Shown here: piece by piece, positions 7,650-52,135 of the stretch
Layout of the letters: every line of letters starts with the position of its first letter
Position numbering within the stretch: the stretch's first letter is position 1
Origin: Octopus sinensis
Lineage: Eukaryota
Reading direction: 5' to 3'
Assembly (NCBI RefSeq): GCF_006345805.1
Contig: NC_043003.1
Coordinates: 82,150,001-82,214,000 of the forward strand
Length of the DNA stretch: 64,000 bases
Notes under the pieces: model-generated
Seen by the model: the letters and a program-made list of their open reading frames with translations, nothing else
Databases searched by the model: none
What the model was told of the DNA's origin: nothing
Made by a program: the position numbers and the translations under genes

Positions 7650-7845
7650 GATAATAATAATAATAATAACATCGAAAATACCTTAGGAATTTCGAACCTG
7701 GGTTCGAAATTTTCCCCCAAAACACCTGATGAAGACTGGAGATTGTATCAGCTGATAAGCTGTGTTAACAAAAAACAAGATGAGGACAAAATATCCATGA
7801 AATGTAAATAATGTACGTAATTCCCCATCTCTCAAATATAGAAGT
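7650..7845 (+). mobile_element. Solo Penelope pLTR with decayed hammerhead (same family as 19218-19430)
   Basis: (AAT)n-CATCGAAAATACCTTAGGAAT...AACAC-CTGATGA-AGACTG...CAGCT-GATAAGCT-GTGTT matches the reverse complement of 19218-19355. The tail matches 20503-20555. Confidence 0.8.
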
Positions 7846-8100
7846 AATTATTCGATTTGACTGTGTGTGTTTGTGTTTGTGCGTATATCCGATAATATTC
7901 TAAATATCGTGTATTAGCAATATCGTACATTTACTAATTGTAGCACCAACAACACCATCATTTGTGGTGCTGCCGCAGCTGGCACAATCATCGGACTAAA
8001 ACGGTGTCACTGCCCATCTATCCATTGAAATGTTGAAATACATTTCTTCGAATGTACTCCGCTGAAGATGGGCCACTTACACGTACACATGTATATACGT

Positions 8101-8470
8101 GCCCAGTGGTTAGGGCAGTGGACTCGCGGTCATAGGATCGCGGTTTCGATTCCCAGACCGGGCGTTGTGAGTGTTTATTGAGCGAAAACACCTAAAAGCT
8201 CCACGAGGCTCCAGCAGGGGATGGTGGTGATCCTTGCTGTACTCGTTCACCACAACTTTCTCTCACTCTTACTTCCTGTTTCTGTTGTACCTGTATTTCA
8301 AGGGGCCGGCTTTGTCACTCTCTGTGTCACGCTGAATATCGCCGAGAACTACGTTAAGGGTGCACGTGTCTGCGGAGTGCTCAGCCACTTACACGTTAAT
8401 TTCACGAGCAGGCTGTTCCGTTGATTCGGATCAACCGGAACCCTCATCGTCGTAACCGACGGAGTGCTTC
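8101..8470 (+). mobile_element. tRNA-derived SINE family R
   Basis: A box (GCCCAGTGG) and B box (GGTTTCGATTCC). Highly similar by eye to 22051-22431 over the full length. Confidence 0.9.
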
Positions 8471-17607: not shown

Positions 17608-19241
17608 TATTACTTTCTTCTCGTTATACGCAGAAGATATATCTTTAGACACTACTTCCTACTTATTAAATTTATTTCATGTTACCCAACAGATAATTAC
17701 TTTTGACACTGATTTATGCTTTCATATAATTCCCTACGTCAATTAGTATACTTATTTGTTTAGTTCTGAAATCAGCTCTGACCTTGTAGATATATGGCCA
17801 AAGGCTTTTAAACTTTACCAAATCGTACTTTGTTTCAGAAGTAGTGTATCGAATATATCCTTCTCTTCATTTTGGATGTTAGATTGCATGATATAAGAGA
17901 TCATTTTACTATTATTTCTGACAAGCTGTAAGACGATGAAGTGGCTTACTCTATTTAACTCGAAATTGTTACACTGTCGAATATTGTGGTAAATATAAAA
18001 TAAATAAGAGAAATTTCAGATACGTAAAAAGAACCAACATATTACAATTTTGGATGAATAGCTGATTAACTAGGTAAAATACATGAACACTACAAATTTT
18101 TTCTTCTATTTGTCACACATAGCTGTTGCATTTTCCTTCAGAAACAGCGTCTAATCTACGAAGTTCAAGGATGCCTTTAATGGATTCTTAGGTATAATTT
18201 CTAGAACAGAAAGATTACTAGGTAATACTGTTGTATTTATTATGTTCAACCCGGAAACGAACTGAGTGTTATTCTACACTCTTCATAACATGTACAAACG
18301 CAAAGAAAAGTTTACTTGACATATATTAAGTACAGAAGAAACAGTTTTATTATAGAAGATGGGTGTTAATAGTGTAATAAATGCAAGAGATACACATGTA
18401 CAATTAGAATAAAGGAAGAGAGGAGTGTCTACCATTTCATCTACTTCAACTAATTGGAATTTAATGCTTCGACTGTCATTAACGTTTCTTAAGAGGGAAG
18501 GCAGTATACTTCCACATACAAATATACAACTCTTTACACTGATTTTATTTGTTATACACATTTACGCACAAACCCACCTACATTGTCACGTATATTATCA
18601 CTCATGCAAACTCAAATTCACACACTTGTAACGAAACAACACACACAGAAATTGTATTGTGCATATGTGTGTGTGCATGCGTGTGTGTTTGTGTGCGTAT
18701 GTGCGAGAGAGAGAGGAGGAGGGATAGAGAGAGAGATTGGCTGTGTGCTCAAAGAAATGTTTTCTATTTAGAGTAAACGAATTGAAAATAAAACTTTTTA
18801 TAGTTGTCTTCTCTCTTGAAATTTCTAATTATACTCATCATTAGGGTCATGCGTACACATTTACGCAACAACTGTTATATTCTCTTCTCTCCCCACATCT
18901 CTTTCTCTGTCCGCCTCTGTCTATCTTCCACTCTCTTTCTCTCTCTCTATATCACTCTGTGCAATCGTGTGTATTTGCATGTATTTATGATAGTATACGT
19001 GCTAAGCAATGTGTGCTGGCGCTCTCACAAATATGAAATGATCTGCATATTTACAAATACATATGTCAGCTTATAAACATGCAGTGTAATATGAATTATC
19101 TACCTCGTAATATTGTTACACTTTTAAGCAGAGTGTTTGTGAAGGCAACTAAAGTCAATGTAGAAAAAGGAATATTGGATAAAAATATAAATTATCTTCA
19201 TATATCTGACTATATTTACATTCGACAGATTGTTTGTTGTT

Positions 19242-19282
19242 AACACAACGTTTCGGCTGATAAACCCTCCAGCCTTCTTCAG
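19242..19282 (-). ncRNA. Minimal type I hammerhead ribozyme motif (5' arm of stem I lost)
   Basis: Minus strand: CTGAAGA-A-GGCTG-GAGGGTTTAT-CAGCC-GAAAC-GTT^GTGTT. The copy at 7721 retains AACAC, which would pair with GTGTT. Confidence 0.65.
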
Positions 19283-19355
19283 GAAATTTACAACCTGGGT
19301 TCTCATTCCTAAGGTATATTTCGATGTCTTTGTTATTATTATTATTATTGTTGTT

Positions 19356-19429
19356 CAGATCACTGCCTGGAATTGAACTCGGAATCTTGGGATTAGTAGC
19401 CCGTGCTCTTAACCACTACACCATATACC
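19356..19429 (-). other. tRNA-like sequence with Pol III A and B boxes inside the Penelope 3' end
   Basis: GGTATATGGTGTAGTGGTTAAGAGCACGGGCTACTAATCCCAAGATTCCGAGTTCAATTCCAGGCAGTGATCTG: A box TGGTGTAGTGG, B box GAGTTCAATTCC, tRNA-like spacing. The acceptor stem pairs poorly, so not called a tRNA gene. Confidence 0.75.
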
Positions 19430-19459
19430 AATGAGCAATTATGGAGTGAATTTTGGGGC

Positions 19460-19789
19460 TTATAAATCTAATATTCTCCTATCCTTCCTTAATACCGGTT
19501 CCCATATGCTACTCATATCTGCACTCGGCCTGCTTAGGAGGATGTTGTGTCCTAGCATGTGTGCTGCTTCTTTTAGTTTTCGTATTTTCCAGTGCTCTTT
19601 TCTGTCTATTATTTTCACTTCATCCCACAGAAGCAGGTTGTTTCCATTTTTCCATACATGATCAGCTATACCCGATTTATCGATATCTCCTCGTGTCACA
19701 GCTTTGCGATGTTCGTCTACCCTTATTTGGAGGGGGCGGCATGTTTCTTCTTTGTATAACCTGTCACAGCTGCATGGGATGGAGTACAT
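19460..19789 (-). pseudogene. Penelope GIY-YIG endonuclease domain (degenerate)
   Basis: YSIPCSCDRLYKEETCRPLQIRVDEHRKAV...SGIADHVW...WDEVKIIDRKEHWKIRKLKEA. Confidence 0.9.
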
Positions 19790-19923
19790 TCAGTCTTTAG
19801 TCATATTCTCTTCTATTGGTGGTTTTACTCGAAGGAAATATTTGCGAAGTGTTGTATTACTCTTGAATACTGTCCTGATGTCATATGGGCCGCATATATT
19901 TTGTATTTTTTCGAAGAGGCCTT

Positions 19924-20466
19924 TCAATGGGGTAGACAGACTGTGGACAGTTTATTGGTCTCATCCTCTCTCTTCTTCATAATTGGAGTGGATAGTATAC
20001 TTTTGAGGTAGTTGTTGCTTAATAGATTGTTACTGAGCTTGATCATTTCTTCGTGGTGGGTATCAAAATCGCTATTTATATTCTTAGCTCGATGTTTTAG
20101 GCACTGAGCAATCCCTCTCTTTACACTGTATGGTTGGTGGGAATTGAAGTTGAGGTATCTTCTAGTAAAGGTCGGCTTACGGTGTACGGATGTCCTGAAT
20201 CCATACTTGGGGCGTTTTATTAATACGCCCAGGAATGCCAGCTGATTGTATTTTTCCTTTCCCATTGTAGACTGTATGGATGGCTTTGTTGAGTTCACAT
20301 GATCTAATAACACTAGGACATCTTCCTGGTGGGGCCAGAGTATAAAGGTGTCATCAAAATATCGAAGCCATAGTTTTGGTTTTAGTGGTTTTGATCCTAA
20401 AGCCAAATTCTTAAAGTATTCCATGTCGGCTATTACCGGTGATAATGGCGAACCCATATCTAAACT
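19924..20466 (-). pseudogene. Penelope reverse transcriptase, C-terminal half
   Basis: MGSPLSPVIA, WLRYFDDTF, FLGVLI, VHRKPTFTRRYLNFNSHQP. Frameshifted relative to the endonuclease. Confidence 0.92.
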
Positions 20467-21884
20467 CTCCTCTTGTCGATATATATCCGTCGAATGTAAA
20501 GAATATCCGTCAAATATAAATAATGTGCATCATTCATCATCTCTTAGATATAGATCTGACTATATTTGTTTTCAATTTATAATCTGAACTCGTCTTCATA
20601 TTACATCACGCTTTTGTACTGCATCTTCGTTTATATAGAGAGATATATCGTTGCTTCTATGTTACCTTTCAGTGTTGCGATAGGAACTGGATTGTAAATT
20701 CTTTTTCCACTCTATAATGTCACTGTATGTAGGTAACATTCGTATAATCTAAATAGAAATATAGTTTTCCTACCATAGTTACACTAATTATATTGCATAT
20801 TATCGTTTTTGTATCGACTCCCTTTTACTGAACAGTAAATATTTGGTTAGGTTTTAGAACGTATCTCTTAAATATAAATGCTATTAACATACAAAATCTA
20901 GGAGAAACTGAAGCCTTGTTTTATTTATTCAATTTTTTTTCTACTTTTGCATGTGTTAGTACATTACGTTTCAAATACATAATTTAAAAGGATTACTGCC
21001 TATATGTATAAAACACAATAGCATGAAGGTATTCATTGATAAATATCATATTATGTTGCATTAAACACCCTGGGAAAGCAACACAGCTGACATAAGTTCA
21101 CTGTACCGTCCCCTTCAATTATTAATTCTTCGAAATTCTACAAAACTAAACAGTAGTATTCAATCTATGCTGCTCAAAAGTGAGCAAAAATAATACTGCT
21201 CAAAAATGTTATTTGGAATGAAATATATAAAAATTAATTTTCGTATTTTCAGAAAAAAAATATCATCTCCAGGAACACGGAAATTGTGCAAATTAATGAC
21301 GTTTACGAATCACTTTCTATTATATTTGTAATTACGTAAATCGATTGAGTAACGGAACTTCTGGCATGTCAAAACAAGCACATAATTTATTGGCATGAAA
21401 TCAGTTGCTAGCACATCTAGCCTCAGTCTAATTGACATGATACTTTGCAATGCTTTTTGTTCCTACATAGCTACTATCGTTACCGCATGTTCCCAGCGTT
21501 GTCTAAACTGTCAGATTCAAACAAATTATCTAGATCATCTTTATCATCGCCCCCATATTTTTTCCAGCGCTGCCACTCTACTAGCAACTTTATCCGGCTT
21601 TGCCCTGCAGAAAATCACACACTAATTCTATTTGTGTCCGTGTGTTTTACTTGCAATCCGTAAACGTACGCTTATTCGTGTATTGCATTGCTTTCAAGTG
21701 ATACTTACTATGTTACAGTAATATTACATGTCAAATTAAATAAAATAGAAGCAGAAACTCCCTTTCTTTTGCGCCATATAAACATATCCTTATCCATATG
21801 TAGCTTCACCTGTTGACTTTACGTGGAATATTAGATGTTGATCCCGGGTACAATCTATGTACTTACGTACAAAAGAGGACTTGT

Positions 21885-22050: not shown

Positions 22051-22431
22051 GGAGGCGCAATGGCCCAGTGGTTAGGGCAACGGACTCGCGTTCATAGGAT
22101 CGCGGTTTCGATTCCCAGACGGGGCGTTGTGAGTGTTTATTGAGCGAAAACACTTAAAGCTCCACGAGGCTCCGGCAGGGGATTGTGGTGATCCCTGCTG
22201 TACTCTTTCACCACAACAGTCTCTCACTCTTACTTCCTGTTTCTGTTGTACCTGTATTTCAAAGGGCCGGCCTTGTCACTCTCTGTGTCACGCTGAATAT
22301 CCCCGAGAACTACGTTAAGGGTACACGTGCCTGTGGAGTGCTCAGCCACTTACACGTTAATTTCACGAGCAGGCTGTTCCGTTGATTCGGATCAACCGGA
22401 ACCCTCATCGTCGTAACCGACGGAGTGCTTC
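22051..22431 (+). mobile_element. tRNA-derived SINE family R, full length, inside (TA)n
   Basis: GGAGGCGCAATGGCCCAGTGGTTAGG...GGTTTCGATTCC...CGACGGAGTGCTTC. Paralog of 8101-8470. Confidence 0.92.
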
Positions 22432-32537: not shown

Positions 32538-32539
32538 TA

Positions 32540-33056
32540 CAATTGTTTCATACGAAGAACAGATTTATTTAAAGCTGCAAATATTGCAGCAAATACAGGT
32601 GTCCCGTATTCATCAGCCAAAACACATATGAGTTTTCCAAACATCCTAGGGGGTGAGGCTACACTCATGATGTATCGAAGAGAGTTCTATGAAAAGCAAA
32701 GTTAGATTTTAAGCAGACTTAAAATGTTTTCCAATGATGCACAGTTTTATAAAAGGTTTTTAAAAAGATTGTTAGCTTCACAGAAAAGATAAAACCATCC
32801 ATAATAATGCAGGTGTAATTTCCAGAGATATGAGGAGAGATTTTATTCACACTGTGCATCATTGGAAAGCATTTTAAGTCTGCTTACAATCTAACTTTGC
32901 TTTTCATAGAACTCTCTTCGATACTTCATGGGTGTAGCCTCACCCCCTAGGATGTTTGGAAAACTCATATATGGTTTGGCTGATGAATACAGGACACTTG
33001 TATTTGCTGCAATATTTGCAGCTTTAAATAAATCTGTTCTTCGTATGAAACAATTG
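32540..33056. mobile_element. Foldback/MITE-like element with ~206-bp inverted arms
   Basis: 32538-32745 and 32851-33058 are reverse complements (about 8 mismatches by eye) around a 105-bp spacer. Ends TA|CAATTG...CAATTG|TA. Confidence 0.88.
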
Positions 33057-33111
33057 TACTGAACAACTAATCCATTCTTGTTGCTTTTTTCTTGTGTATA
33101 TATATATATAT

Positions 33112-44120: not shown

Positions 44121-47100
44121 TAATTTAAAAGGATTGACGTAACTCTTCACAAAGATAAATAGACAATAGAAAGAGAGCTGCCTCTATCGAGTTCAAAACG
44201 AAAAGCGATAAGAATTCAAAATTATACAAAAATATGAACGAGAACAACCAGCGTCCAGATGTTGATGGAATGACATCATCAGTCTTCAAAGCTGAATTTT
44301 ACAACTGGCAAAGAGAAAAAGAAAGAAAAAAAGTAAAAATGAAAAAGCAAAGAAAAGGAAAGGAAGGAAAATTTAATCAAACAGTTTATGTCAATTAGAT
44401 GAAATTCTCCTGTCTTTTTATTCATTTCTCCAGGGCGTGACGTTAATAACCCGCAAATGTATTTCTCCTCAAACATTTTGGGTACTACAAGTGTACCAGA
44501 TTCAGAATATTTTCTGAGAATATACACTTTCGAGTCTTTTTCCAAATTGAAGCCGTTTGATTCAAAATCTTCGGCAAGTTTTGTCGACGTACTGTTATTA
44601 TGCCTGGCGTCATATCTGTGCCCATTGAATTTTTTGTTTAATTGTTCTGTTGTACAACCAACATAAATCAAGTTGTGCTTCGTGCATTCTGCTGCGTACA
44701 CCAAATGGGAATTTCTACATGCCCCAGCTTCTGTATAAATCATAGCACTTCTGTAATGATTCCTGATGGAATTCACTTGACACGTATTATTGCAAAATGA
44801 ACGGGGCTTACCTCTCTTGCGGCTGGGTTTTTTTTTACATGGTACAGCGTGCAGATACTCTAATACTAGTTTTCTTGGAGTCAGAAGTAGAGGTTAATAG
44901 CTCTCATATTTTTTCTGTTTAAAGGCTACAATAGGCGGCTGAGGAAATATTTCTTTGAAATGAGGATATTTTCCTGCATTATACTGGTAACTTTCATGCA
45001 ACACTTTTGAAATGCCAGCGAAATTTTGATGCCAGTTAGTCACTAAATAAATTCTGACACATATTGTACTGTTTCCTAAAATTATGCGTGAAAGTTGCTA
45101 TTTCCTTTAATTGTGATCACTGTAATTGGCATAATGGAGTACAAAAGCATTTACATGTCACCCATAATCCCCTATATCAGTAGAAATCCGTTCCGTTTTA
45201 TCCTCAAGAATCGGGATTTCGGATTTGACCAAATTATAGGGTTGTATGATCAAAGCGGAGGTGGAGGTAAATGTGGGGTCAGGGGAGCTTGCGAAATAAC
45301 TCTGTCACTATTCTTCCTCTGGAAAACTTAACATTTGTGTAAGAAAATTCAACGCTAGATTTTGAAAAACTTGACGTAAATTATATGTTAGACTTAAAGC
45401 CATAGATTTTAGCGCAACAGCCACAGAAATACAAGAAGTAAATTGAACAATATTGTAATTCTTCCTAAACAAAAAAAATCATCACGGAATCGTAACCAGA
45501 GTATTGGTTCATGACCATGTAGTGATTATATTTTATTAAGTAACTGTGTCTCTAATTTCGTCATGAAGACATTAACGAAATTGACTACCATGGGGATACA
45601 CATGGCACAACCCCTCATCTGATGGTAACATTTTTGTCCAAACTTCATTGTGTTACTTCGTACCACAAGCCTCAATAACCTACTGAGAAAATTTGGTAGC
45701 ATACTTTGTTTGACCGTTTTCCGAAGGCATTCATGCATATTTCTACCCTTTCATCGTGATCCTTATTAGGTTATAAGGAAGAAACAGGCATGGTTACCAA
45801 AAATAGTTTCCGACATGGCTTCGGTACTTAAAAAAGTTGTTGATTTTAGACACAAAATCAAAGGTATCTCAGGAAGTAGAAAGACAGGCTAAATTAGAAA
45901 GACTCCTAAATTTTGGTTGTACAACATTCATATCCACTGCATTGGAGGAAATCGTTAGACCCTTTGGCGTATTTTGGGAGAGACCATAAAATACAGAGAC
46001 AGGAACAAACTTATTGTTTTCGAGACAAAATCATAAATGTGCTTGCATTTTTCCCTGATCAAATAAAAGCTTCTCTGGAGCGTTTCCAGTGACTAGTTCA
46101 AATGCGTACGCCAGGTCAAAAAGACCACAATCATGTGCGCCAACTTGGGATTACTAATATGAACTTGTTGAATTGTGAGAATTATGTTTATGGTGGCTAC
46201 AGCATTGTTATTTGTGCTGTTCTTGTGGTACTGGTAAGTTCAAACTGTCATAAATATAAACATCTCCGAAAAAATAGGTCGACAAAAGAAAATTACTGTA
46301 CTTGGTATGATGAATGAACAGTATGCGATGTGGACAGTATGTTAGAAATTCAGTGCGAGAAAAAAATCGTTGGTTGTAATGGAATTTCAGGAAACATTTC
46401 CGCTAACATTTTAAACTCAGTATCAATAAGTTTGTTGCATAACATTTGTCCCGAAAGTAAAAACGATTACGCCTCATATTTCAGAGCAAATGTGCTCAAC
46501 CAAAATACTCCCTTTCCCACTGGCTCTGAATAAATAGAAAATCAGCTTTTTCATCTTCTTTTCCTTTTTTGCCTCCAGGGCCGAAATTTCCTCAAACAAT
46601 TACACAAATAGTTTAAACTATTTTTAGAAGAAAATACCTGTTGAAGGACATTCATAATATCTTTAATGTCTGCACCAAGCCATACTAATTTTGAAAGATA
46701 GTATTCAATAATAACTTCCATTATGTGAAATGAATTGCTCTCACCAATCAGTTTAAACATTTGAAGCAATGAATCGTCAGGCTGTGATGCACACATTGGT
46801 ATATTTGATATAAGACCGTCCGGTATAACTTTTTCTAGTTTGCACGTTTCCAGAAATGATAAATGGCTTTTGATATTAGCATGAAAACGATTCATCTTTT
46901 TTAAGTGATAGAAATATCGATTTCTCATTTTCTGATTCGTATTTGAATGGTACAAAATCCATTGTCCCAGGATTTAGCTCAACACGTGGTCTAGCGAAAG
47001 TAACAGGGCTGACAAACCAACTGTAAGTAGAAATAAAACGCAAAAGCTCTAATTCACATTACGATTTTCCTTAGAAACACGACTGTTTTCGTAACTTCCA

Positions 47101-51742: not shown

Positions 51743-51750
51743 TATATATA
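51505..51750. repeat. (TA)n microsatellite
   Basis: Direct inspection. Confidence 0.95.
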
Positions 51751-51843
51751 TAATATTATTAGAGACAAAACCACTATTTTGCAAAACAAACAAGGAAAGA
51801 CTTAATCAATACATAAAATTTTAATAAAAAGTCAAAAAAACCG

Positions 51844-51886
51844 CCACTACAAATGTTTCTTGTCCTGATCGACAATCTTTAGGTGG
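51844..51886 (-). ncRNA. Hammerhead copy with mutated core
   Basis: Minus strand: CCAC-CTAAAGA-TTGTC-GATCAG-GACAA-GAAA-CATTTGTA-GTGG. G>A in CUGANGA, and the stem III palindrome is broken. Confidence 0.65.
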
Positions 51887-51920
51887 ACTTCCAATTTTCA
51901 CTGACTTGAAAACTGGAAGT

Positions 51921-51963
51921 CCACCTGAAGATTGTCGATCAGGACAAGAAACAATTGTAGTGG
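51921..51963 (+). ncRNA. Minimal type I hammerhead ribozyme (intact core)
   Basis: Stem I CCAC/GTGG; core CTGAAGA (51925-31); stem II TTGTC-GATCAG-GACAA; GAAA (51948-51); palindromic stem III ACAATTGT; GUA cleavage triplet, predicted cut after 51959. Confidence 0.85.
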
Positions 51964-52135
51964 CGGTTTTTTTGACTTTTTATTAAAATTTTATGTATTG
52001 ATTAAGTCTTTCCTTGTTTGTTTTGCAAAATAGTGGTTTTGTCTCTAATAATATTATATAATATTTTACTATAAAATTAGATTTAATCCTAAATCTGATT
52101 TTTTCCCTGTAAATTTGGATTTATTCCCTAATATT

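Follow-up and report, generated by a model that had tools for sequence, protein, structure and literature searches.

A tRNA-derived head with A and B boxes marks the start of the terminal repeat in an octopus Penelope/Poseidon-type family

A broken Penelope-type element and its family

The 64-kb stretch of Octopus sinensis DNA analyzed here (the window) carries, on the minus strand at 19462-19213, a broken RT/GIY-YIG reading frame whose stop is followed by 29 nt, a tRNA-like head, an (AAY)8 tract, and a hammerhead core (Table 1). The frame is damaged by a frameshift near 19925 and an in-frame stop near 19790; its C terminus reads ...RILDL, with the TAA stop at 19462-19460. The element is truncated at its 5' side near 20480, where it is fused to part of its own 3' end in inverted orientation. 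A tRNA-like sequence with A and B boxes about 30 nt past the GIY-YIG stop, as described in an earlier note on this DNA, is indeed present, with position +1 of the head 29 nt after the stop. The final 7 nt of the spacer pair with the first bases of the head; they read TGCCCAC in most copies of the family and are mutated in the window copy. The head is the only A and B box pair in the window. When the 245-nt region was shuffled 5,000 times with dinucleotides preserved, such a pair arose once and the hammerhead core with stem II never.

Table 1. Features of the two window copies and position of an associated repeat (window positions unless a locus is named)
Feature	Position	Strand	Remark
RT + GIY-YIG ORF, Penelope/Poseidon-type, broken, 5'-truncated	19460..20481	-	60-65% identity to RT/GIY-YIG proteins P0001-P0029
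Spacer, 29 nt	19431..19459	-	predicted transcription start ~G(-6), 19436
tRNA-like head, 5' end of pseudo-LTR, cloverleaf decayed	19356..19430	-	+1 = 19430
A box TGGTGTAGTGG	19413..19423	-	motif
B box GTTCAATTCC	19369..19378	-	motif
(AAT/AAC)n tract, (AAY)8 here	19332..19355	-	length differs among copies
ATG opening the element ORF in tandem copies (MRTQVRNF...)	19304..19306	-	open reading in natural copy L195
Minimal type-I hammerhead within coding region	19242..19282	-	predicted cut 19247/19246
Hammerhead parts	core CTGAAGA 19282-19276; stem II 19274-19255; GAAA-CGTT 19254-19247	-	
Pseudo-LTR 3' end to first RT start point (TGTAAATA)	19213..19241	-	15-nt deletion in window copy
Inverted pseudo-LTR 3' end with tail	20502..20558	+	joined to the truncated 5' end of the element, typical PLE inverted structure
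Second copy, 5'-truncated: (AAT)n, decayed hammerhead, tail; without head	7650..7842	+	
~550-nt repeat	L033:2075-2620		also L053, L109, L117, L193, L258, L288, L348, L349, L355

The hammerhead reported for the window copy stood in its core and stem II and fell in its fold: a deletion of about 10 nt has taken the 5' stem I strand, which reads GACAC in 96 of the 137 hammerheads that we collected, and this copy therefore cannot fold as a hammerhead. The 137 sequences were gathered with an anchoring pattern that fixed stem II; their core is CTGATGA in 56 and CTGAAGA in 37, the variant position being N7. The family hammerhead, with a GACAC/GTGTT stem I and an ACGT palindrome, has the minimal type-I form of Penelope-like elements (PLEs) described by Cervera and de la Pena (PMC4209133; all literature is cited here from the accessible parts of each text), which the window copy lacks, and one copy (L068) takes the hammerhead as its MFE fold. 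From its sequence, the family hammerhead appears to be an ordinary PLE minimal ribozyme that defines neither end of the copied RNA. The predicted cut triplet is GUU, and U17 makes a weak cleavage site. The earlier note also had (AAT)n plus hammerhead recurring alone at 7650-7845; a head-less second copy does lie there, on the plus strand at 7650-7842, beginning inside (AAT)n, and its core is mutated, with GATA in place of GAAA. A hammerhead-like match on the plus strand at 51925 was rejected, as it sits in an unrelated palindrome.

The head does not behave as a foldable tRNA. ARAGORN called no tRNA gene in the window and, at its default threshold, none among 60 head-anchored loci; at -ps90 it gave six matches in the 60, called a Ser(ACT) pseudogene. 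An Rfam search returned neither a tRNA nor a hammerhead match, the acceptor and T stems are broken, and the head folds no better than its shuffles (z +1.5). A functional tRNA gene is ruled out by these ARAGORN, Rfam, and fold results. The best-scoring candidate parent in an incomplete set of 20 distinct genomic tRNA calls was Arg-TCT, barely above Ala, Lys, and Thr. A sequence resembling the head also stands by itself, without the other parts of the element, at L097:1500-1560. Its A box is the same, its B box has diverged, and a T8 run follows directly; it may be a related Pol III unit or a relic of the donor.

Head, (AAT)n, and hammerhead together are the pseudo-LTR of one Penelope/Poseidon-type family. 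Exact 24- to 26-mers occur in the genome 3,662 times for the hammerhead, 907 times for the A box, 2,886 times for the B box, 5,729 times for the tail side, and 47 times for the tail-to-ORF junction, against 0 occurrences of reversed control words, giving at least 5,700 copies. Two insertions in forty blind 10-kb stretches correspond to about 14,000 genome-wide (95% range, 1,600 to 49,000). The copies are 80 to 90% alike, so the family is old and decayed, and its words are present in DNA-scale runs under five organism labels. Among 29 other loci picked by endonuclease DNA alone, 27 run into the head (two of them partially), one stops before it, and one lacks it (24 of 26 with head once four identical loci are merged), which rules out a one-off SINE insertion. 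The head as the start of the terminal repeat is a family trait, tRNA-derived, fixed, and unusual for a PLE. The one exception (L050:1813-1900) is an ORF-linked copy missing precisely the head and retaining the spacer and (AAC)n; it is either a deletion or a pre-capture allele. When an in-genome control was sought with a distant Poseidon-like protein as the query, 30 of the 30 fetched loci were the head-bearing family itself. Scans for relatives yielded nothing in the first metagenome or in the viral set, and a second metagenome scan gave only 35 to 56% relatives.

Several other repeats lie in or beside these copies. A noncoding repeat of ∼550 nt sits inside (AAT)n tracts, including those of the Penelope family, where it separates the head from the hammerhead; judged by its sequence context, it looks to be a microsatellite-targeting element, perhaps with Dong/R4-like targeting. 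At L240, L246, L247, and L043, the place of the head is taken by a different repeat, which ends in ...AAAACTACTG(AAT)n and is fused there to the (AAT)n of the family. The window also holds a second, unrelated, decayed PLE (44280-46970, minus strand), Neptune-like, with a Cys-rich linker before a GIY-YIG domain (Pfam E value, 3e-4); no tRNA head was seen there. Two long, near-perfect inverted repeats, at 32538-33058 (217-nt arms, 94%) and 51747-52060 (154-nt arms, 98%), are unrelated to the family. Copies of yet another repeat, at 22060-22430 and 8100-8200 (both minus strand), show tRNA-like boxes on the plus strand by eye and are probably an ordinary SINE.

A reading frame that begins inside the repeat

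The earlier note saw in the module just a 3' end; tandem copies show that the element also begins with it and that the ATG of the ORF lies inside. The order of parts is head, (AAT)n, ATG, hammerhead, tail, ORF, and head again. The frame starts inside the repeat, 50 nt behind the start of (AAT)n, with the ATG about 25 nt after that tract, and the hammerhead thereby falls in the coding region. One natural copy (L195) is open from this ATG through hammerhead and tail into an N terminus also seen in protein P0025, and the frame to the junction is intact in 9 of 15 junction copies that have the ATG. Another natural copy (L335) keeps an open frame of 551 amino acids, 60 to 65% identical to P0001/P0003 (RVT_1, 1e-11). 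The tail region contains a 9-nt unit, GTAAATAAT, whose number varies between copies with the frame kept (NVN repeats), and the N7 variant of the hammerhead is a D/E change in the protein. As the unit number varies in frame and the N7 variant exchanges D and E, constraints on RNA and protein overlap here.

In its protein and its copies the family resembles EN+ PLEs: a single ORF encodes an RT followed by a C-terminal GIY-YIG domain with an aligned YSIPC..C..YKGET motif, partial tandems provide a pseudo-LTR, 5'-truncated copies are inverted, and a tail of 33 nt matches the optional 30- to 40-nt tail of that group. The GIY-YIG assignment is based on motif and homology; Pfam gave no match for L335 or for the endonuclease piece of the window, and a PDB search gave no match. 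No Cys-rich linker is seen between RT and EN in the protein alignment. Among the RNA-read joints displayed, no GT..AG joint was seen of the kind expected from the pseudo-LTR intron of some EN+ PLEs.

Most of this architecture is shared with PAc of Anolis (PMC11167929) and Penelope of Drosophila virilis (PMC2377424), which likewise have an ORF with RT and C-terminal GIY-YIG, a pseudo-LTR from partial tandems, inverted truncated copies, a 30- to 40-nt tail with two end points, and a promoter position in the pseudo-LTR. In PAc, too, the start of the ORF and a minimal hammerhead overlap; its RT begins copying from two internal positions, which delimit the tail (PMC11167929). The pseudo-LTR of PAc and Penelope, in contrast, begins at a variable truncation point and has a LINE-like promoter, whereas the present one starts at a fixed A/B-box head; the accessible parts of the two reports say nothing of a tRNA head.

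Where the copies begin and end

For the 5' ends, we took the first 30 matches to the A box and the first 30 to the B box along contig C1 as anchors; all of these 60 loci were scored, one duplicate was removed, and ORF-linked copies with a damaged B box were kept. Ends cluster at the head: 39 of the 51 arms reaching the A box end within 28 nt (−19 to +9), and the other 12 continue upstream past the head. The upstream loss rate predicts 12% of arms in that interval (P = 2e-26), and the rate within the head itself predicts 28% (P = 6e-13). The pile-up lies at −8 to +6 in both short and full-length copies; ends scatter over about 15 nt, blurred by fold-back and microhomology, and those at −16 to −18 are fold-back artifacts of ends near −7. 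In a tail-anchored set blind to the head and read by eye, 15 of 30 copies have their start at the head or just within it, 3 extend into the ORF, and the remaining 12 start further 3' (5 in the (AAT)n region, 7 beyond). The two copies met with in the blind stretches, 400 kb in all, both begin at the head. Two full-length copies (L279 and L280) begin at the head, cover the complete ORF, and finish within the 3' repeat, the 3' head included, so head-initiated templates can be 2.9 kb long; two others (L201 and L218) start at the head and extend 190 to 350 nt into the ORF. Many head-start copies are palindromes centered on GCCC-NN-GGGC, as would be expected if cDNA folded back at an RNA end near −6. 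In RNA-seq reads under a related organism label (three runs from one study, 6% read), depth rises 2.2- to 3.0-fold at the head, and 317 to 422 reads per run depart from the reference exactly there. Altogether, we consider it highly probable that templates start at the head.

The 3' ends lie elsewhere than at the ribozyme. Of 30 hammerhead-anchored copies, 26 end 45 to 95 nt past the cut, at either end of the Penelope tail (14 at the far end, three of these being references, and 12 at the near end); 3 end earlier, one of them at the cut, and 1 is unclear. At the 5' side, 5 of 28 ends are scattered within −8 to +13 of the cut without a pile. Ribozyme-defined copy ends are ruled out by these two observations. 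The earlier note had offered, as one of two branches, a Penelope-mobilized, self-cleaving SINE/retrozyme whose Pol III RNA would be trimmed by the hammerhead to ∼185 nt. Head-start short copies do outnumber long ones, Sm-alpha offers a precedent, and one copy ends at the cut; yet 26 of 30 end at tail points beyond it, 5' ends do not pile up there, the hammerhead is inside the ORF, and no tandem monomer arrays were found among the copies. Furthermore, T:A alleles at N7 stand at 14:15 in ORF-linked and 11:10 in head-start copies, and shared alleles at three diagnostic sites (n = 50) rule out a separate solo subfamily. That branch is largely refuted, and we give it a very small chance, although a 185-nt cut product may exist as an RNA that is not what was copied. 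The A/B-box 5' head at which copies start is a property of SINE2 elements; the alleles shared with ORF-linked copies and the contiguity with the ORF are unlike a separate nonautonomous SINE2 lineage.

The other branch of the note, a Penelope family that captured a Pol III-type promoter, is supported: ORF-linked copies carry the head as a fixed part, and short and full-length copies alike have their 5' end there. The note's further remark that the combination is not standard needs dividing. A tRNA-type head with a hammerhead has a precedent in Sm-alpha/Sj-alpha of Schistosoma, SINE-like repeats in which a Pol III-type promoter is followed by a hammerhead (review, PMC6765202); within an autonomous PLE, we found no case in the literature. 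Sm-alpha and Sj-alpha are noncoding tandem elements with a canonical hammerhead that releases monomers, whereas the present module belongs to an autonomous RT-encoding element, and its cut defines no copy end. The non-LTR retrozymes have a type-I hammerhead related to that of PLE pseudo-LTRs (PMC7761336; bioRxiv 10.64898/2026.07.22.740005), but they, too, consist of noncoding tandem monomers (PMC7761336), and the family shows no such monomers bounded by the ribozyme cut. TRIMp3 elements (Cassandra, Helenus, and Ajax) carry a small-RNA-derived Pol III promoter in their terminal repeat, for which a SINE insertion into the repeat is the proposed origin (PMC10886601). They are nonautonomous, with two true LTRs and 0.3 to 1.3 kb in length, unlike this 2.9-kb coding PLE with pseudo-LTRs. 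The precedents, Sm-alpha and Cassandra/Helenus, are thus nonautonomous. Within the accessible text, two cephalopod repeat papers (PMC13282606 and PMC8967140) and PMC7761336, PMC5786205, and PMC3653858 mention no such element, and the terms tRNA, pol III, and promoter occur 0 times in the bioRxiv preprint. This literature search, which found no PLE with a tRNA-derived promoter, covered the accessible text of articles, and an entry for the family may exist in Repbase or Dfam.

Candidate sources of the template RNA

The position of the start relative to the intact A and B boxes fits a type-2 promoter. From the sequence, we put the probability that a captured internal Pol III promoter in the head makes the template RNAs at roughly two in three. 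Since Pol III stops at runs of four or more T (PMC3141230), we counted such runs on the sense strand: the majority sequence of 28 long copies has none in its 2,606 columns, against 4.7 expected by composition (P = 0.006), with P values of 0.09 and 0.25 under first- and second-order Markov nulls; runs of four or more G are also absent from these columns. Single long copies have 0 to 3 private T runs (19 in ∼49 kb). Six distant Poseidon-like loci have 38 in ∼9 kb (2 to 8 per 1.2 to 1.7 kb) and no A or B box in the 0.15 to 0.76 kb downstream; for the Neptune-like copy of the window, whose T content is higher, the count is 32 in 2.7 kb. The L335 open frame contains 2, versus 2.8 expected from synonymous shuffling. 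Because one family amounts to one evolutionary observation and L335 is not depleted, the missing T runs are only suggestive. The family reads in the RNA-seq runs are mostly passengers of host transcripts, 76 to 80% continuing into unlike sequence equally in both directions; no pile of transcript starts or ends was seen in these fragmented cDNA libraries, which would hardly show one. The RNA-seq data bear out the copy structure, including the step and the fold-backs at the head, not Pol III transcription.

A start at the head need not be Pol III, because D. virilis Penelope has a TATA-less, LINE-like internal promoter at the same position. Characterized PLE promoters lie in the pseudo-LTR and are LINE-promoter-like, with the start site there in Penelope (PMC2377424) and likewise in Chlamys (PMC8557442), and templates of 2.9 kb and their translation would be easier for Pol II, the head then being a fossil tRNA/SINE insertion at, or co-opted as, the pseudo-LTR promoter. 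What speaks against Pol II is that the start precedes the A box by 7 to 15 nt and that the A and B boxes are both intact and spaced as in a tRNA while the cloverleaf has decayed; the sense strand is, furthermore, free of T4, and 5' junctions inspected by eye show no consistent extra G. We regard this alternative as unlikely. A start without any promoter would require a long read-through RNA on which RT stops or folds back at the hairpin TGCCC-AC-GGGCA or at a structured head. Many head-start copies are indeed fold-back palindromes on that hairpin (12 of 41 arms ending at −20 to +8 were flagged), and the RNA-seq reads have loose ends, but in the majority of head-start copies the flanks are plain or another inverted arm is attached, three-quarters of RTs would hardly be halted by a hairpin of 5 bp, and the head lacks folding beyond that of shuffles; structure would, moreover, halt RT at its 3' side and not at its 5' edge. 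We hold this to be quite improbable, and RNase P cutting of a read-through RNA at +1 of the tRNA-like fold scarcely credible: it would suit the group of ends at −1 to +2, but many ends retain a leader of 3 to 8 nt, and the acceptor and T stems are broken.

With Pol III initiation as the preferred reading, the following course can be proposed. An ancestral pseudo-LTR would have received the insertion of a short SINE or tRNA retrocopy that ended in an (AAT)n tail, and TFIIIC/Pol III would initiate there, some 13 nt ahead of the A box. The RNA would pass an uncut hammerhead to the tail, and Penelope RT would initiate internally there, as in PAc. Each copy that reached the head would regain promoter and RT start site and, with both regenerated, would no longer need a tandem partner. 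At the RNA 5' end, cDNA would often fold back on the GCCC-NN-GGGC palindrome, yielding hairpin copies; from a 5' repeat, the same RNA could run on through the terminator-free ORF, yielding full-length copies. The protein might be translated from the uncapped Pol III RNA or from Pol II read-through, and we leave both as options. SINE/TRIMp3 RNAs reach up to ∼1.3 kb, so 2.9 kb would be unusual, and the same paper argues that autonomous partners of TRIMp3 must use Pol II (PMC10886601). That Pol III also makes the full-length RNA is a tentative proposal which we would not favor at present. The wider picture of an autonomous element with a 2.9-kb Pol III RNA, purged T4 runs, SINE-like head-reaching repeats, possible uncapped translation, and the ribozyme as an off switch is speculative and rather doubtful.

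PLEs regain a promoter by chance tandem insertion; a Pol III promoter within the repeat would solve that problem, and one element would then be SINE and autonomous partner at once. A promoter-bearing repeat may also explain why one family makes up all 30 Poseidon-like loci examined. If true, the arrangement would run counter to the rule by which Pol II (or read-through by Pol I) transcribes autonomous retrotransposons, and it would be a natural test of long Pol III transcription and of uncapped translation. The fixed RNA 5' end would give a handle on the formation of inverted PLE copies, and Pol III hammerhead elements of the Sm-alpha kind could have arisen from PLE repeats along such a route.
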